A program made the translations under genes and the position numbers. From a virus (taxonomy: Duplodnaviria > Caudoviricetes): 53,065 nt of DNA. Positions within the stretch are counted from its first letter, which is position 1. Every line of letters begins with the position of its first letter. Positions 3,624-35,867 of this stretch are shown here, one piece after another. The notes beneath the pieces were generated by a model. That model worked only from the letters and a program-made list of their open reading frames with translations, was not told where the DNA came from and did not search any database. The DNA lies in the IMG/VR virus record IMGVR_UViG_3300031999_000029, positions 1-53,065 of that record; one strand, 5' to 3'.

Positions 3624-3985
3624 AACACACTGTAAGCATAGCAATATCAAGGGCTTGTCCTGATCTTGTCTGATAAGACCTATTATGTAAACTCTTAGAG
3701 ATTTCGCAACGATTACGCACGCTTGCGAAAGCGTATGCGACATTTCATTACCTGAACAAAATGAGCGCGCGCCTTGCGCGAGGGTGGGGCGCACGCTCAC
3801 GCGCGAGACGCGCGAGAGGTCGCAGCCTGAACCCCCCGGCACCCCCCGGCGCGGCGAGGGCGAGGACTACCTACCCCGACTCGCGCGCTCGCGCGGGTGA
3901 CGCAAAGCGTATTGACAAAAACCCTACAGTATGAATCGGCACGCCTCCCCGCGTCAAAAATTTGTACGCGCGCCGTGTGAATGTG
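3624..3985. other. Non-coding region, candidate packaging-initiation or genome-end site
   Basis: AT-rich part, inverted repeat TTTCGCAA/TTGCGAAA (3702-3730), CGCG-rich tract, tandem ACCCCCCGGC x2 (3831-3850), AAAAATTT; directly downstream of the putative TerS. Confidence 0.35.
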
Positions 3986-3987
3986 TG

Positions 3988-4016
3988 TTGACATTAACCT
4001 CACGGTTTGAGACACT
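3988..4016 (+). promoter_or_regulatory. Sigma70-like promoter
   Basis: TTGACA-N17-GACACT upstream of the GGAGGAG RBS of the 4063 gene. Confidence 0.6.
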
Positions 4017-4027
4017 GACCGTGAGGG

Positions 4028-4241
4028 AAACGAACCGCGCCCGAGGGCGCACGGAGGAGACCGTGGTATTCATTCGAACGCACGAACAGGCGAAACAAAT
4101 TTTGGCCGACGAGCATATTGTGGATCCAATATGGCTCGGAGATGTAGACGATCCGGACCGTCTCGGTTGTTACCTAGACGAGCACATCGAGTGGTTGCGG
4201 ACAGAGGACGAACCGGAGCTGCGGACGTGGGCCAGGAGCGT
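4028..4241 (+). repeat. 214-bp dispersed direct repeat, copy 1
   Basis: Matches 21974-22187 with 2 mismatches (4109 A/G, 4205 A/C). Confidence 0.97.
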
Positions 4242-4458
4242 ACGTGATGATCTCAACGGGACGGGCGGTGACCCCATGACTACCCATAAAGCGGCGAAAG
4301 GGCCCGAGAGGATTTTTTGCGGCGGCACCTTCGACAACACACCGGGGAAGGTTGCGGTGCGGTGTCGTCGGTGTGGCCGGGTCTGCTACGAGAAAAACGA
4401 GGGAGACATTTGCTACGCTCCGGCGGCGAACGCACCGGAGGTGAAGGCGATCCCATGA
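4063..4458 (+). CDS. Hypothetical protein with C-terminal Cys cluster
   Basis: GTG 4063 after GGAGGAG; first ~60 aa nearly identical to ORF 22009; C..CxxC..C..C tail. Confidence 0.6.
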   Translation: MVFIRTHEQAKQILADEHIVDPIWLGDVDDPDRLGCYLDEHIEWLRTEDEPELRTWARSVRDDLNGTGGDPMTTHKAAKGPERIFCGGTFDNTPGKVAVRCRRCGRVCYEKNEGDICYAPAANAPEVKAIP

Positions 4459-4739
4459 CCGACCTCACAATCGTCAACACAATCTGGAGCCAGATCCCGA
4501 TCGCAATCAAGCTGGCGTGCGGCGCCCGTGACCCGAAAGCCGCCGACGAGCACACCTTGATCTTCACCGTCGCCCGGGGTCTCCGCTACGTCCAAATCCA
4601 GTTGAACGGGCGCGACCTGTACGACATCAGGCACTTCCGCCTGAAGCGCGGCACGCTCGAAGCCATCCCGATCGATCAACGCGGCGACGTCTATGCCGAG
4701 GATCTCGGAGAGTGCCTTTACCACATGATCAACAAGTGA
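4455..4739 (+). CDS. Phage hypothetical protein
   Basis: ATG 4455 with ATGA overlap; strong GC3 bias; DLYDI and DVYAEDL motifs. Confidence 0.7.
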   Translation: MTDLTIVNTIWSQIPIAIKLACGARDPKAADEHTLIFTVARGLRYVQIQLNGRDLYDIRHFRLKRGTLEAIPIDQRGDVYAEDLGECLYHMINK

Positions 4740-24123: not shown

Positions 24124-25065
24124 ATGCCGGACAACGTGCAGGTAGAGAACCAAGGAACAGGGACACCAGGAACAGGACAAGGGGCGGTAAACCAAGGGGC
24201 ACCAAATCCCCAAGCCGCACCGCAGAATCCACCGGCGGCTGCCGGAGGCGACAACGGCGGAACCGCGAACGCGGCTCCCGCGACGTCGCAATCGAACATC
24301 GGAAAGGTTGGCGGCGGCAAAAACCTCGTCATCCCCGAGCACAGCATGAAGCGCATCAAAGAAGAGCACTTCACGAAGGGGAAGAAAGAGGCATTGTCGG
24401 CGTTGGCGAAAGAGCTTGGCTACTCTTCACCGGAAGAGATGCAAGGGGCTCTCAAAGCCGTCCGCGCGAAAGGCGGATCGACCCGTTCTGATAACGGCGA
24501 CGGAGAACCCAAGCCGAATCAGAATCCGCAGAATCAGCCGAACGGCGGGAAGAATGCTCAACAGGCGAAGGGCAACAACTCGAACGTCGACAGACGCTCG
24601 TGGGAGAAGCTCGACAAAGAGCAGAAGCGGTGGGGCGAAGAGCGGGATCAACTCCTGAAGCAGATCCGATCGGAATCGTCTCGGCGGAAAGAGTTGCAGC
24701 AAGCGCTCGACGCGAAAGAGGCGGAAATGGCGTTGCGCGAGACCGCAGTGATCTCGGGCGTCAAAGACGTCGACTACGCGATTCGTTTGCTCACTCGTCA
24801 CTTGGACGGGAAAACCGAAAAGGAGCTTGCCACGTTCGACGAGAGCAAGTTCTTCGGAGAGCTGCGGACTTCCCACCCGTACCTGTTCGGTGAGGTTGTG
24901 AAGGCGGCAAACACTGGCACCGGCACGAACGGAAACCCGCCCGCGCCGAAGCCGGGAGCTGCCGCAGGCGCAGCCGCAGCCGGCGGACAAGCGGACGCGA
25001 AGAAAATGTCGCGCGAGGAATTCCTCGCTCACATCGCCAAGCGCGGTTTGAGCGTCGGACCGTAG
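24124..25065 (+). CDS. Capsid scaffolding protein
   Basis: Disordered N-terminus, coiled coil, HPYLFG and terminal AKKMSREEF; immediately upstream of the capsid gene. Confidence 0.8.
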   Translation: MPDNVQVENQGTGTPGTGQGAVNQGAPNPQAAPQNPPAAAGGDNGGTANAAPATSQSNIGKVGGGKNLVIPEHSMKRIKEEHFTKGKKEALSALAKELGYSSPEEMQGALKAVRAKGGSTRSDNGDGEPKPNQNPQNQPNGGKNAQQAKGNNSNVDRRSWEKLDKEQKRWGEERDQLLKQIRSESSRRKELQQALDAKEAEMALRETAVISGVKDVDYAIRLLTRHLDGKTEKELATFDESKFFGELRTSHPYLFGEVVKAANTGTGTNGNPPAPKPGAAAGAAAAGGQADAKKMSREEFLAHIAKRGLSVGP

Positions 25066-25168: not shown

Positions 25169-26572
25169 ATGCCTGATTTTTCAACGATTTTGATGGCTCC
25201 GGACATCCGAGCGCTCACTCAAGAAAACATTCTGGAGCGCGCCTTTCACGACGCACTCTATCCACGGAACCTGTTCCGTGGTGAGGCCATGCCGCAACTG
25301 TGGCCCAACAACGTCGGCGACACGATGGTGTTCACCGGCACCGGTCTTCTGAAGACGAAGCAGAAGGCGCTCGTGCCCGGCACCGATCCGACCCCGAGTC
25401 AGTTCCAGTATGAGCAGTGGACGGCTCAGTTGCAGCAATACGCGGACGCGATCGACACGCACATGCCGTCGAGCATCACCGCGATCGCTTCGCTGTTTCT
25501 CCGCAACGCGCAGCAACTCGGCCTCGGCGCCGCGCAGACGCTCAACCGCATCTCGCGCAACAAGATGTACAACGCGGCTCTCTCCGGCTCGACCGTCGCG
25601 GACGGCGGCCCGCAGAGCGGCACGACCCTTCGGGTCAAGCGGCTGAACGGCTTCACCCGCGCCCGCCGGCCGGATCTTCCGCTCGGCAGTGCGGTGCGTT
25701 TCGACACCGTGTCGCCGAACAACAAGTTGGCGATCCGGGTGTTCGACAACGGCGCTGACGCGGCGTTCAACGTGATCGGCTTCTCGGCCGACACCGCCGG
25801 CGACGAGGCGGGCCCCGGCACCTTGACTCTGGAATCCGCGATGACGGCAGTGGCCGCTCGCGCCTATGTGGTCGCAAACGACCGCACCGTTCTGGTGCGT
25901 GTCGGCGGCGGCCTCAAGGTCGACGATGTCGGCTCCGGTGACAAGTTCACCCTGGCGGACATCCGATCGGCAGTGGCGCGGCTCTGGTCGCAGAACGTGC
26001 CGGAGCAAGCCGACGGTCGCTTCCACTGTCACATCGATCCGATCAGCCAGGCTCAGATTTTCGCCGACGATCAGTTCGCTCGGCTGCTGACCTCGTTGCC
26101 GGATTTTTTCATGTACCGGCAATTCGCCATCGGTGAGCTGCTCGGCACCGTGTTTTTCCGCAACTCCGAGTGCCCCGGCCCGGACACCGTCGAAGGCGGT
26201 CTCACGGCGTCGTACTCGCAGGACGATCCGTTCGCCGGCGAGCTTTACAACGACGGCACCACGAGCGGCGTGAAGATTCATCGTCCGCTGTTCGTCGCGC
26301 AAGGTCTACTCATGGAATACTACCAGGATCTTTCCGGCCTCATCACCGAGGCGGGGATCACGGGTGCCGTGGGCGAGCCCAAGGTGACGAACAACGGCAT
26401 CGAGATTTACAGCGATCGGATCCAGCTCATCATCCGTTCGCCGCTCAACCGGTTGCAGGACATGGTCAGTACCGCGTGGAAGTTCATCGGTGACTGGCCC
26501 ATCCGAACCGACAGCGTGACGGGCGACGCCGCCAGGATCAAGCGCGCTCTGATCGTCGAGCACGGAGAGTAG
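25169..26572 (+). CDS. Major capsid protein (HK97 fold, N4-gp56-like features)
   Basis: 467 aa after the scaffold, AGGAG RBS, strong codon bias; GDT..F, LQQY, IGEL.G..F and PLNRLQ...WK motifs. Confidence 0.88.
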   Translation: MPDFSTILMAPDIRALTQENILERAFHDALYPRNLFRGEAMPQLWPNNVGDTMVFTGTGLLKTKQKALVPGTDPTPSQFQYEQWTAQLQQYADAIDTHMPSSITAIASLFLRNAQQLGLGAAQTLNRISRNKMYNAALSGSTVADGGPQSGTTLRVKRLNGFTRARRPDLPLGSAVRFDTVSPNNKLAIRVFDNGADAAFNVIGFSADTAGDEAGPGTLTLESAMTAVAARAYVVANDRTVLVRVGGGLKVDDVGSGDKFTLADIRSAVARLWSQNVPEQADGRFHCHIDPISQAQIFADDQFARLLTSLPDFFMYRQFAIGELLGTVFFRNSECPGPDTVEGGLTASYSQDDPFAGELYNDGTTSGVKIHRPLFVAQGLLMEYYQDLSGLITEAGITGAVGEPKVTNNGIEIYSDRIQLIIRSPLNRLQDMVSTAWKFIGDWPIRTDSVTGDAARIKRALIVEHGE

Positions 26573-27120
26573 TGATCAATCCTCTTTCGCCCCCCGTCGC
26601 CCTCGGGCGGCGGGGGTGCGAGGGGCGAATGGATCAGGGGTTTTCAAGTTGCTCTCCTTGTGGGAGCATTTCGAGCTGCGAGATACCTTCGGGGATCTCT
26701 TTCGATTCGCACTGGCGTGTTGAATCGGCGGCTCAACCGCTCGCTACTGTCTTCGGACGGTTACGCCAACGAGCGGGGTTTCGCCACTCTTTGTTTCGGC
26801 TCGTGCGTTCCCTTGTTCTGACACTCTTCGGTCAAGAGTTGACGACGTTCGGGAACCTTGTTGCCGAAAGACCTTCGGGTTTGAGTGGCGTGGTATTTGC
26901 GCAAACCCTGGCTTACGCCACGGAACCGCGCAGAGTTTTGGCAGCCAGTCTGATGTGTCCGGCTGTGCCGGGGATACACGGATGACTCGGGGCCTTGTGT
27001 TGTCGGTCTTCGGACCGATCGCCTGGAGTGGGACACGAGATTGACGGGCAACTTCCCAACGGTCGGGATAATGATCGGTGCCCATCTAATTTGTGTCTCA
27101 CTCCGCTGCCTTTTAATCGC
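26573..27120 (+). ncRNA. Candidate large structured non-coding RNA
   Basis: No credible ORF in ~560 nt; four cUUCGg-capped stems, nested multi-branch helices and a 15-bp stem (27025-27039/27090-27104) with G-U pairs that favour the + strand. Confidence 0.68.
26591..26616 (+). terminator. Strong GC hairpin after the capsid gene (terminator, processing site or first stem of the RNA)
   Basis: CCCCCGTCGCC-CTCG-GGCGGCGGGGG; no adjacent U-tract. Confidence 0.4.
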
Positions 27121-27133
27121 ATAGGAGGATGCC

Positions 27134-27472
27134 ATGGCCAGGAAAGTGAATCCGCAACTCAGCATCAAGCCGATACCGATGTCGAGCGAAAACTCGAAGC
27201 CCACGGATCCGGGCGTGAAGGCGGCGGCTCCGGCCGCTCCAGAAGTTGCTCCGGCCGCTCCCGAAGCTGCCCCGGTTGCCCCGGCCGCTCCGGCGGCGGC
27301 GCCTGTGGCCGAGAAACCGGCGAGCCGGTATCGGGTCAAGACGCAAAAGTCGTTCTCGTTGCACGGACAGATCGTGACCTGGCACGTAGGCGACGTCGTC
27401 GAGGTGTCGAGCTACGGTCTCGACGGGATCAAGCGCGCAATCGACGCGGGCGTGGAGCTGGAGAAGTTCTAA
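27134..27472 (+). CDS. Head-associated protein with Pro/Ala-rich linker
   Basis: AGGAGG RBS; APAAPE repeats at about 27221-27305. Confidence 0.75.
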   Translation: MARKVNPQLSIKPIPMSSENSKPTDPGVKAAAPAAPEVAPAAPEAAPVAPAAPAAAPVAEKPASRYRVKTQKSFSLHGQIVTWHVGDVVEVSSYGLDGIKRAIDAGVELEKF

Positions 27473-27877
27473 ATGCCGCTAGATGCCAGAGAGAAAGAGC
27501 GGGTGCGGTATCATCTCGGCTACCTAGCCGTGCAGCCAGCCGCTTCACTCTCGTTCGGCATACCCCGTCCGTTGCAAACGATCTTTCTTGTCGATTCGGC
27601 GATGTCGTATCTTATCGAGGACGCCGTCGATCGCGTGCGTCGCGTGCTCAAGATCATGGACGATCTGGAGCTGAAGTTGATTGATTCTCAGGATCGTCTC
27701 GCTGCCATACAGCTCGACTCACTCAAGTTGCGAGAGAACGAGCCGGATCAGCTCGAAAAGGAATATGCGCGTTGGGGCTTTCGTCTTGCCGATATTCTCG
27801 GCGTGCCTGTTTACCCCTACTCGACGCGCTACCGAGTCGCCATGGGCGTGCGCTCCGGGTCGATCCCGGTGAGGTAG
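27473..27877 (+). CDS. Head-tail adaptor (connector)
   Basis: EKERVRYHLGY N-terminus, helical, position after capsid. Confidence 0.65.
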   Translation: MPLDAREKERVRYHLGYLAVQPAASLSFGIPRPLQTIFLVDSAMSYLIEDAVDRVRRVLKIMDDLELKLIDSQDRLAAIQLDSLKLRENEPDQLEKEYARWGFRLADILGVPVYPYSTRYRVAMGVRSGSIPVR

Positions 27878-27883
27878 CCTGTC

Positions 27884-28411
27884 GTGGCAACCAAGTTCAC
27901 CGATCTCACCGCGAAGCAAATCACCGCGACGCTGGCGCAACGGCTGATTCCAGTAGCCGATCGCGTGCGCGATCTTTTCACTCGCTTCGGAATGCGGCCC
28001 TATAAGATCCGCATCGTGCGCGTGAGGTGGAGCGACGGGTCGCGCGGAGTCGGAACGCCGATTGTCGAAAACACTCTCGACTTGTTGCCGACGCCGCTGG
28101 TGCAAGACTTGACCACGTTGACGGAGATCGTGCAGCCGGTCGGGCTCGACGAGGTCGGCAGCATTCTCGTGTCGGAAATCAGCGGACGATTCACCGACAA
28201 CGATCTTCGCTTCTTGTCGGCTGACGGGCGCCCCCCGGATCCGGACGTCGAAGTGTACTACGAGATCGAATTTCCGAAGCTCGACGGCACGAGCGACAAG
28301 CGGCGCTTCTTTCTTCGTTCGGCGCCGCACTACGCCGCCGGTCGTTTCATGTGGCAGTTGCGTTTAGAGAAGGCTCACGAAGATCGGGCGCGCAACGGGG
28401 ATCCCGAGTGA
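27884..28411 (+). CDS. Putative head closure / stopper protein
   Basis: Synteny, beta-rich 175 aa. Confidence 0.55.
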   Translation: MATKFTDLTAKQITATLAQRLIPVADRVRDLFTRFGMRPYKIRIVRVRWSDGSRGVGTPIVENTLDLLPTPLVQDLTTLTEIVQPVGLDEVGSILVSEISGRFTDNDLRFLSADGRPPDPDVEVYYEIEFPKLDGTSDKRRFFLRSAPHYAAGRFMWQLRLEKAHEDRARNGDPE

Positions 28412-34740: not shown

Positions 34741-34748
34741 GATAGGCC

Positions 34749-35867
34749 ATGGGTAGCCCGAGTTCATTGTCGATTAAGGAGCTGACCGGAGAAAGGCGAA
34801 AGCTGATCTTGCAGGGGCGGGCGCTCCCCTATAGGCCGCTCAAGCTCTCTGGAAAAATGCGTGCCGAATTCACGTGGTATCCCGGTAATCCGATCGCTTC
34901 GATTCAAATGCTCGGTACGCAAGAGGACGCGACTACGATCAACGGCATGTGGAAAGATCGCTTCTTGAAGACTACCACGGACAGCGGTTTGCCCGTGTTC
35001 GGACAGACTGCCGTGGCTCTCTATGAAGGGGCCGCAGTGCGGGACGTTTCCGATCTGGCGAAGGTGGTCGACGGGTTTCGCATGCGCGGACAGCTTCTCG
35101 AAGTGAAATGGGACGAAATCACCCGTCACGGCATCATGACGCAATTCGAGCAGACGTGGCAGCGGCGCGAAGACCTAGAGTGGTCGATTGAGTTTCAGTG
35201 GTCGAGTCGTGGCGAATTGGTTTTGCCCGTGGGTTTTGGCACGTCGTTGTCGATCGTCGACATCATCAACAAGATTCTTAACGCCGTTCAGGCGCTTTTA
35301 GACGCCGTGCAGGTGATCAAAGACGCGTTCGCCATGGTGGCGTCGATTATCAACCTCGTGAACAACGCCATCGACGCGATCGCCGATGCCGCCGCCGAGC
35401 TTTCGTCGATGGCGCAGCAGTTCGTCAATCTGGCGATGTCGGGTCCGGAGACGTTTCGCAAGGTCATTTCGACTCTGGAAACATTCAAAGACGAGGCGCA
35501 GTCGATCGTTTCGGCGTTTCAAAGTATTCCGGCTCGGGCACAGCGTGCCGTCACCGACGTTTCAACGGTCACTCAGGAGCAAGCAATCGACTCGGAAGAG
35601 AAGACACGCAAGGCCCGTCTTGCCGCCCGCAAGTTGCAGCGAGAAGCTGCTCGCCAGCAACAAGAGATGCTCGCCAACTCGTATCAACAGGCCACGCTCG
35701 CCGCGTTCGTGGCGCGCGAGGGACAGGACTTGCGCGACGTGTCGTCGCAATACTACGGCACCGCGAACGAATGGCGCCGTCTCGCGACGTACAATCACAT
35801 CAGCGGGAGCAGGCTCCATGCCGGCACGGTGGTTTTGGTGCCGAAACTCGGAACGGAAGGAACCTAG
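34749..35867 (+). CDS. Baseplate tube-initiator protein with C-terminal LysM-like domain
   Basis: YPG near N-terminus; EGQDLRDVSSQYYG...WRRLA.YN...G..V.VP. Confidence 0.75.
   Translation: MGSPSSLSIKELTGERRKLILQGRALPYRPLKLSGKMRAEFTWYPGNPIASIQMLGTQEDATTINGMWKDRFLKTTTDSGLPVFGQTAVALYEGAAVRDVSDLAKVVDGFRMRGQLLEVKWDEITRHGIMTQFEQTWQRREDLEWSIEFQWSSRGELVLPVGFGTSLSIVDIINKILNAVQALLDAVQVIKDAFAMVASIINLVNNAIDAIADAAAELSSMAQQFVNLAMSGPETFRKVISTLETFKDEAQSIVSAFQSIPARAQRAVTDVSTVTQEQAIDSEEKTRKARLAARKLQREAARQQQEMLANSYQQATLAAFVAREGQDLRDVSSQYYGTANEWRRLATYNHISGSRLHAGTVVLVPKLGTEGT

Follow-up and report, generated by a model that had tools for sequence, protein, structure and literature searches.

A conserved, apparently undescribed structured RNA downstream of the major capsid gene of uncultivated phages

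The IMG/VR virus record IMGVR_UViG_3300031999_000029 is a 53-kb linear record that was analysed here over its whole length of 53,065 nucleotides (nt), referred to below as the window. Between the stop codon of the major capsid protein gene and the start codon of the next gene lie 561 nt (26573-27133), and we have found that this gap holds a real, conserved, single-copy RNA structure of the plus strand, which is non-coding and tied to one operon position. On a crude gene map based on the GC content of third codon positions (GC3) it was the largest non-coding gap of the window; a stretch considered as a comparable gap, 34741-35770, was rejected because it contains an open reading frame (ORF) of 372 amino acids (aa). 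The capsid gene (25169-26572, plus strand, 467 aa, stop TAG at 26570-26572) lies directly 5' of the element, and its product matched the PHROG family phrog_1357, 'major head protein', with an E value of 1.1e-13. The closest cultured capsid found by tblastn, at 31% identity, was the annotated major capsid protein of Streptomyces phage Kromp, a phage with only a 58-nt gap after its capsid gene, and the 561-nt element itself had no blastn match in cultured phages. A scaffolding-like gene lies upstream of the capsid gene (24124-25065), and three small plus-strand genes stand 3' of the element (27134-27472, 27473-27877 and 27884-28411). The first of these, taken from the ORF list, encodes 112 aa (p112) and starts with the ATG at 27134; no Pfam or PHROG family was matched by it, and tblastn placed its homologs after the element in most relatives. 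Within p112, three tandem 21-nt repeats (27227-27298) encode an Ala/Pro-rich low-complexity N-terminal stretch.

The original prediction, which was made from the letters of the window, had described the gap as a densely structured RNA and had proposed that its minimum free energy (MFE) be set against dinucleotide shuffles. The MFE of 26573-27133 was -254.3 kcal/mol, compared with -215.9 +/- 6.7 in 100 shuffles (z = -5.7), and none of the 100 folded as stably. The minus strand folds well too (z = -7.2), and thus energy by itself gives no strand. CTTCGG occurs five times on the plus strand within 330 nt (26687-27013), and four of the copies cap stems as UUCG tetraloops in the MFE fold, in agreement with the count given in the prediction; the fifth (26826) lies partly inside a stem and forms no tetraloop, as that count had implied. 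Over the whole window and both strands CTTCGG was found at 68 sites, against 45.5 +/- 5.6 in shuffles. In 24 non-redundant members of the family described below (13.7 kb) it was found 57 times and its complement CCGAAG three times, and among the tetraloops on stems of 4 bp or more, UUCG came first on the plus strand of the same members, with 41 cases. The exceptional stability of the cUUCGg loop is a property of RNA. The asymmetry of 57 to 3 therefore argues for an RNA made from the plus strand, which is the sense of all neighbouring genes. The plus strand had been proposed from the start on account of G-U pairs; the strand was borne out by the loops, whereas the G-U argument failed in the core stem, in which G-U or U-G pairs number 14 and A-C or C-A oppositions 11, a count that does not tell the strand. 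Adenine was found to be strongly depleted on the plus strand of the window element and of the family elements (11-22% A).

The stems, the nested domain, the CCGCTCG/CGAGCGG pairing and the 15-bp stem that had been listed from the sequence were all recovered in the MFE fold, on which the following anatomy is based. All of its features lie on the plus strand. Directly after the capsid stop stands a first hairpin (26573-26636) with a GC-rich stem of 11 and 8 bp, a CUCG cap and a 5-bp outer stem, its helices being 26573-77/26632-36, 26583-90/26618-25 and 26591-601/26606-16; most of the listed family members, judged by eye and not counted, open with a long GC-rich hairpin as well. It is followed by a variable 5' array (26637-26895) of several stable hairpins, three of them cUUCGg-capped, together with a nested domain. 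The stems of the array are 26680-83/26696-99, 26746-51/26756-61 and 26869-73/26878-82, the latter two with UUCG loops, and 26737-43/26770-76; the nested domain (26782-89/26883-90) encloses the helices 26795-800/26863-68, 26807-12/26851-56 and 26823-28/26834-39. The core hairpin (26896-26934), which covaries and was also recovered by RNAalifold, comes next, followed by the 5' strand of a closing helix named P2 (GGCAGC, 26940-26945), which pairs with 27105-27110. Inside P2 lie two variable junction hairpins (26948-26983 and 26990-27024, the second with a cUUCGg hairpin, 27002-08/27013-19) and a long hairpin, P5 (27025-27104), formed by the 15-bp stem 27025-39/27090-104 and then 27046-50/27079-83. 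The tip of P5 carries an H-type pseudoknot (27055-27077), in which stem 1 pairs CCC (27055-57) with GGG (27065-67), loop 1 is AA, stem 2 pairs CGGTC (27060-64) with GATCG (27073-77) and loop 3 is ATAAT. At the 3' end the second strand of P2 (GCTGCC, 27105-10) is followed by a U-run (27111-14), the ribosome-binding site AGGAGG (27123-28) and the ATG of p112 at 27134.

The relatives were sampled first through the capsid protein, a route that is independent of the RNA, and 14 loci with 63-70% capsid identity were obtained. In seven of them (listed as L004-L008 and L013-L015, with L013 and L015 identical here) the capsid gene was separated from the next-gene homolog by 500-1700 extra nt, as in the window, and these insert carriers form four sequence groups. 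Another six (L002, L003 and L009-L012) had only 25-82 nt at that site. Alignment of the inserts revealed an invariant block, GCAAACCCTGG-(loop)-CCAYGGAACCGC (window 26901-26929), amid almost unalignable sequence, and this core is invariant across five lineages that were found through the capsid protein alone. Scans with a core pattern then retrieved 33 stretches in IMG/VR, 11 in species genomes and 45 in metagenomes; the pattern fixes 21 core bases, and identity at these bases among the loci so retrieved is by construction. All of the assessable IMG/VR stretches lie on the strand of the capsid gene, 170-850 nt after a capsid homolog (42-73% identity) or, where the capsid end is missing, before homologs of p112 or p134. 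The same capsid and downstream-gene context was found for 27 of the 45 metagenome stretches. The remaining 18 had no phage context, some of them being coding sequences of other organisms, and they were set aside as chance matches. One of the 11 genome stretches, L057, had the capsid context; it lies on a contig of a metagenome-assembled genome (MAG) labelled Gemmatimonadaceae.

A covariance model of the core hairpin (R1) matches the window once, with 63 bits, and had no match in the six loci with the 25-82-nt gap or in 150 further genomes from the phylum of the MAG that holds L057. In a second sample, the best 80 of the 142 relatives found by a capsid-profile search, R1 matched the plus strand just after the capsid gene in 35 loci, 34 of them at E values of 0.0023 or lower and one weakly (19 bits). 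A short gap of 387-484 nt containing the next gene alone was found in 10 loci, and 28 had a longer gap and no R1 match; seven were not assessable, six because 6-198 nt follow the capsid stop and one (L169, 1029 nt) because no p134 homolog was found. Nine of the 28 carry variant cores (L109, L113, L114, L116, L119, L120, L158, L159 and, doubtfully, L150). Among these variants is a 'class B' form, GCAAC-UCC-stem-U-GGA-UCGC, which R1 misses and which has a shorter 3' loop strand and a U-A in place of the C.A opposition. Five others of the 28 (L130, L134, L143, L152 and L182) have no more than a hairpin and a ribosome-binding site, with a downstream ORF that is longer. Altogether at least 28 distinct core sequences were found, and in the collections searched the family occurs in uncultivated phages and nowhere but after homologs of this capsid gene.

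The core hairpin is built of an outer stem (26896-26902/26928-26934) and an upper stem (26909-12/26917-20) with a variable loop, both of which covary, and between them lie a near-invariant internal loop, AAAC (26903-06) opposite AACC (26924-27), two C-G pairs (26907-08/26922-23) and a bulged pyrimidine (26921). In the family the near-constant parts are a G-C and a C-G pair atop the outer stem, the AAAC and AACC strands, the two C-G pairs and the bulged pyrimidine. In an alignment of 29 sequences (A2) 86.6% of the cells were paired, compared with 35-40% when the 3' partners were slid, and the covariation score was 0.414, compared with 0.104 in shuffles, of which none of 500 reached that score. 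A core-independent set of 28 distinct sequences (A8) gave 89.0% of cells paired against 36.7-40.3% when slid, and a score of 0.538 against 0.134 in shuffles, again with none of 500 reaching it, and compensatory double changes were seen in 11 of its 14 pairs. A8 also changes upper-stem pairs that seemed invariant in the pattern-retrieved set, for example from U-A to G-C and from C-G to U-A. RNAalifold, without a supplied structure, returned the same hairpin with its bulged pyrimidine and 4x4 internal loop. These results indicate strong purifying selection on the structure of the core hairpin. A pairing of the AAAC loop with a downstream GUUU was considered and dropped, as it was present in only some of the loci of A2.

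A pseudoknot 40-180 nt 3' of the core was found in 22 of 31 unique loci, with the consensus CCC-(N)A-CGNNN-GGG-(2-9 nt, A/U-rich)-N'N'N'CG-G. Loop 3 was misaligned by MAFFT, and the pseudoknot was therefore counted by a script anchored on stem 1, in which the complement of the 5 nt before the 3' strand of that stem was sought in the next 18 nt. The search thus demanded complementarity, against which a cross-locus control served as the safeguard: 19 of the 22 loci had their own stem 2 complement, compared with 84 of 432 cross-locus combinations (19%), and the three misses were loci with a 4-bp stem 1. Stem 2 was represented by 14 distinct 5-mers, and stem 1 had the compensatory variants GCG/CGC, CCG/CGG and CGAG/CUCG, with changes in L030, L044 and L068. 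Both stems therefore covary, in the arrangement of an H-type pseudoknot. The comparison of post-capsid regions from related phages, which the original prediction had suggested, thus revealed covariation in two parts of the structure, the core hairpin and the pseudoknot.

When 20 loci were folded separately, a similar plan was seen by eye in most, namely the core and then a long-range closing helix around 0-3 variable hairpins and a long pseudoknot-tipped hairpin; a long stem around the pseudoknot sequence was seen, also by eye, in nearly all 20. Short forms (L019, L020 and L073) have the long hairpin alone and lack the two variable hairpins. The sequence of P2 varies between loci (GAUGGC/GCCGUC, GGUGGC/GCCACC, GGAGGU/ACCUCC), and its positional consistency in the separate folds makes it likely that the closing helix is real. 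RNAalifold applied to 13 full 3' modules recovered the core only, since MAFFT failed to align the variable junction. A pyrimidine- or U-rich tract after the closing helix recurs in the family and is followed by a ribosome-binding site and start codon. The distance from the pseudoknot end to the next start was 44-89 nt in 16 of 17 loci (median 59), and the distance from the capsid stop to the core was 106-850 nt. The architecture is conserved over about 240 nt (26896-27133), and the 5' 320 nt are a variable hairpin array in which a k-mer search found no conserved blocks besides UUCG-loop contexts. The first interpretation was thus right in part: a non-coding, densely structured plus-strand RNA is present, but its conserved architecture spans only some 240 of the 560 nt.

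No known RNA family was matched by the element. Rfam 15 (4227 models, including ROOL, GOLLD, pRNA, Mu-gpT-DE, riboswitches, ribozymes and group I/II introns) gave no match at gathering score in the whole window or in 14 diverse family loci (96 kb), the intron models among them, and ARAGORN found no transfer RNA (tRNA) or transfer-messenger RNA (tmRNA) gene in the window, in line with the earlier remark that hallmarks of tRNA, tmRNA, RNase P or group II introns were missing. Lowering the threshold to E values of 10 or less on 26400-27300 gave only five matches; they are weak (11-17 bits), each lies on the minus strand, and none is to a phage-associated RNA family. In PMC10690425, 8,495 candidate structured RNAs were predicted from IMG/VR, the collection that contains this family; the supplements of that paper may list part of the element, and our literature searches did not find the motif described. 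The structured RNA family is thus apparently undescribed, and the suggestion that it is possibly a new class is reasonable given that no Rfam model matches and that compensatory changes occur in the relatives.

Open frames do run through the region, since stretches of 100-200 codons were found in most family members. Over the core, the open frame changes from locus to locus, the core itself is 26-29 nt long with indels of 1-2 nt inside it, so that no reading frame is kept across the core, and L018 and L026 have no open frame of more than 60 codons over the core. Dinucleotide shuffles had mean longest open frames of 73-175 codons; the observed ones were modestly longer in many loci and shorter in some, and in about half of 28 loci at most 25 of 200 shuffles attained the observed length. 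Most of this openness is accounted for by the low A content, and such long ORFs could mislead gene callers. In the window the ORF 26572-26985 matched no PHROG family, and the early statement that some 560 nt after the capsid gene lack a credible ORF stands, the gap being 561 nt long with no conserved frame. An extension of the capsid protein by read-through or frameshift was rejected, since the loci show no consistent frame after the capsid stop. Whether or not a locus has the element, its capsid protein aligns over the full length (residues 1-467) and its next gene is intact.

A quick IQ-TREE analysis of 30 capsid proteins, with support from the Shimodaira-Hasegawa-like approximate likelihood ratio test (SH-aLRT) only and from a sample biased towards element carriers, placed the element on the deepest branches, and the element-free loci L002 with L003 and L009-L012 in nested, well-supported clades. 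Presence and absence required two changes on this tree compared with 5.6 in shuffles, which fits ancestral presence, vertical inheritance and two losses. The core has also been lost on its own. Along the element L105 and L106 are about 90% identical to L073 and lack exactly 42 nt, which are the entire core hairpin with its outer stem. At this place, at least 6 of 10 short-gap relatives (L122, L141, L146, L149, L151 and L009 among them) have a strong GC hairpin that leads into a U-tract and a ribosome-binding site, in the manner of a canonical terminator, and the window element ends alike, with a U-run and a ribosome-binding site after a helix. In L014 an ORF between the capsid gene and the element (3906-4526) matched the Pfam HNH family (E 2.8e-9), and in L022 an ORF of 236 aa at the same place (2257-2967) has a Cys-x-x-Cys-His-like motif by eye and no Pfam match; similar Cys-rich ORFs stand just after the capsid stop in L166 and L181. 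The HNH gene of L014 and the ORF of L022 lie upstream of the 3' module and not between the module and the downstream gene. The 3' end of the capsid gene seems to be an insertion hotspot for such ORFs. In L044, a 51-codon ORF with a good ribosome-binding site was seen between the element and the 132-aa downstream gene. L086 is a near twin of the window in the capsid (99%), the scaffold (100%), p175 (99%) and the element (about 97%), whereas its next two genes (window 27134-27877) are only 80% and 75% identical, indicating mosaicism with a recombination boundary at the 3' end of the element.

What might such an element do? Its anatomy leans towards a role in cis, as its 3' module stands 44-89 nt before the next start compared with 106-850 nt from the capsid stop, as element-free relatives have a terminator hairpin at the site, and as the 3' end of the element consists of a helix and a U-run ahead of a ribosome-binding site; the insertions of L014 and L022, which fall 5' of the 3' module, point the same way. 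We therefore favour, with slightly less than even confidence, a cis-acting intercistronic attenuator or leader with a putative binding partner. The element would then be an elaborated counterpart of the simple terminator hairpin of the sister phages, at the same position, and would determine, by attenuated termination or by control of translation, the amount of transcription or translation that continues beyond the capsid gene, with its very high expression, into the genes for head completion. The 5' hairpin array would protect the 3' end of the capsid message, and the invariant internal loop and the pseudoknot, which together imply a specific partner, would be the recognition site of a protein or ligand factor that tunes this step. 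Control of termination or translation, protection of the message and the trans factor are all parts that we infer.

Several observations weigh against the attenuator or leader. A plain attenuator needs neither an invariant internal loop nor a pseudoknot. A 160-nt multiloop is closed by the helix that adjoins the U-run, an arrangement seldom seen in intrinsic terminators, and a simple scan found no canonical terminator or sigma-70 promoter inside the element. Two clades are without the whole element, and the core has been lost in L105 and L106, where the exact deletion marks it as a discrete module that is dispensable in that lineage. The own-versus-cross helix test for P2 was not significant (mean 19.3 compared with 17.0 +/- 3.9), which is due to partial sequence conservation of both its strands. 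A sampling bias arises from the many members that were obtained through the pattern with its 21 fixed core bases. Finally, the 18 sequencing runs listed with this stretch, all of them of sediment DNA, include no RNA run.

The strongest competing reading is an RNA that is released from the late transcript by processing and acts in trans: a stand-alone, stable non-coding RNA, co-transcribed with the capsid gene or made from a late promoter of its own, derived from the 3' untranslated region (3'-UTR), ending at the U-run and acting, for example, as a scaffold or decoy for a host or phage protein. This was the idea of the original prediction, which had proposed an abundant late RNA in a structural, decoy or catalytic role. 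We regard it as possible although not probable. With its about 240-560 nt, its multi-helix junction, its pseudoknot and its near-invariant loop, the element is more elaborate than a simple attenuator needs to be; the very stable UUCG-capped hairpins would lengthen the half-life of an RNA, the helix and U-run could be its 3' end, and it would stand behind the most strongly expressed late gene. However, there is no promoter-like site inside the element, and none of the listed runs is of RNA. Furthermore, the spacing of the 3' module from the downstream start is one commonly seen in leaders, most of the loops are inert UUCG caps and not conserved interaction loops, and the phage lineage persists after two losses of the element and one of its core.

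We also consider, as a rather doubtful proposal, an ornate phage RNA of a new class. The loop and pseudoknot could form an RNA-protein or RNA-ligand switch that couples capsid assembly to the head-completion genes, for example through feedback by unassembled capsid or head protein on the RNA of its own operon, or the element could be a stable late RNA that acts in trans and has a function so far without precedent among phages.

A riboswitch-like sensor is unlikely. In such a sensor the core loop, the junction and the pseudoknot would be the aptamer, and the 3' strand of P2, the U-run and the ribosome-binding site would be the expression platform, an idea that draws on a multi-helix junction and pseudoknot directly 5' of the U-run and the ribosome-binding site, 44-89 nt before the start, and on near-invariant unpaired nucleotides. 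Yet no Rfam 15 riboswitch matched, no conserved alternative pairing was found, the downstream gene of the head region has no metabolic link, and the rest of the element can persist without the core.

It is more improbable still that the element is a processing element, either a self-cleaving ribozyme or a dedicated RNase site, which separates the capsid message from the downstream one. Near-invariant loop nucleotides between covarying helices do resemble catalytic or recognition cores, and an intercistronic position would suit differential message stability, but no Rfam ribozyme matched and the conserved nucleotides make up one small internal loop and not a multi-strand catalytic core.

That the element might be a mobile or selfish insertion with no phage function, either intron-like or a target or passenger of homing endonucleases, was suggested by its variable presence among close relatives, by the HNH gene between the capsid gene and the element in L014 and by the Cys-rich ORFs at that place in L022, L166 and L181. 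We consider this very improbable, as no intron model matched and the capsid and next genes are complete either way, leaving nothing to splice; furthermore, the element is single-copy and always at one site, the capsid tree fits vertical descent with two losses, and the structure of the element is under strong purifying selection. A signal at the DNA level, such as a packaging site, an origin or a recombination hotspot, would be in keeping with two strands that both fold well and with the mosaic boundary between the window and L086 right after the element, but it has a very slim chance in view of the strand asymmetry of the UUCG loops, a property of RNA folding, and of helices and a pseudoknot that covary while the primary sequence drifts. 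Lastly, the somewhat longer than shuffled open frames of many loci had pointed to protein coding, either by a gene (ORF 26572-26985 or a different frame) or by a stretch added to the C-terminus of the capsid protein; this reading is largely refuted by the shifting frames, core indels and ORF-less loci described above.

Conserved structured RNAs in the structural operons of phages have barely been explored, and this one is well defined and of a size that would allow a specific partner. A role in regulating the passage from capsid to head completion would make it an RNA-based answer to the stoichiometry problem of virion assembly, and a compact and portable module for the tuning of expression; as a stable RNA acting in trans, it would be a new family among the few large non-coding RNAs of phages. 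Natural variants are at hand in the core-less L105, in the class B cores and in the relatives that lack the element.

Among the known systems, ROOL, GOLLD and the phi29 pRNA, the last with a structural role, are large and intricately folded RNAs of phages and prophages, and in this they are like the element described here. The element differs from them in that it matches no Rfam model, has no neighbouring tRNA genes, keeps a fixed operon position by a ribosome-binding site and is conserved over about 240 nt. A second comparison is with operators of phage and ribosomal proteins, such as the leader pseudoknot of T4 gene 32, the coat-protein hairpin of MS2 and the S15 and S4 operators. The element shares with these a compact H-type pseudoknot (with a first loop of 1-3 nt) and a bulged hairpin with conserved unpaired bases, placed about 60-230 nt before a start codon, but its pseudoknot excludes the ribosome-binding site and the start codon, and the likeness drawn here is one of architecture.

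Intercistronic stabiliser hairpins, such as the repetitive extragenic palindromic (REP) hairpins in malEFG and the hairpins of the puf operon, set differential expression within operons. As stable hairpins that stand between a high-demand gene and low-demand genes, they offer a plausible role for the 5' array; they are simple hairpins without conserved loops or pseudoknots, unlike the element as a whole. The terminators of the clade itself occupy the same position and share with the element a helix and U-rich tract with a ribosome-binding site and start within about 10-25 nt, but the helix beside the U-run of the element closes a large junction and was not called by the terminator scan. The Mu-gpT-DE motif of Rfam is an RNA structure that follows Mu-like major head genes. 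Its model does not match here, the capsid family differs, and the element of this study is much larger and has in addition a pseudoknot and an invariant internal loop. Nonetheless, Mu-gpT-DE is the nearest in kind, being like this element an orphan structured RNA that consistently stands just after a phage major head or capsid gene and may be either a 3'-UTR element or a small RNA.

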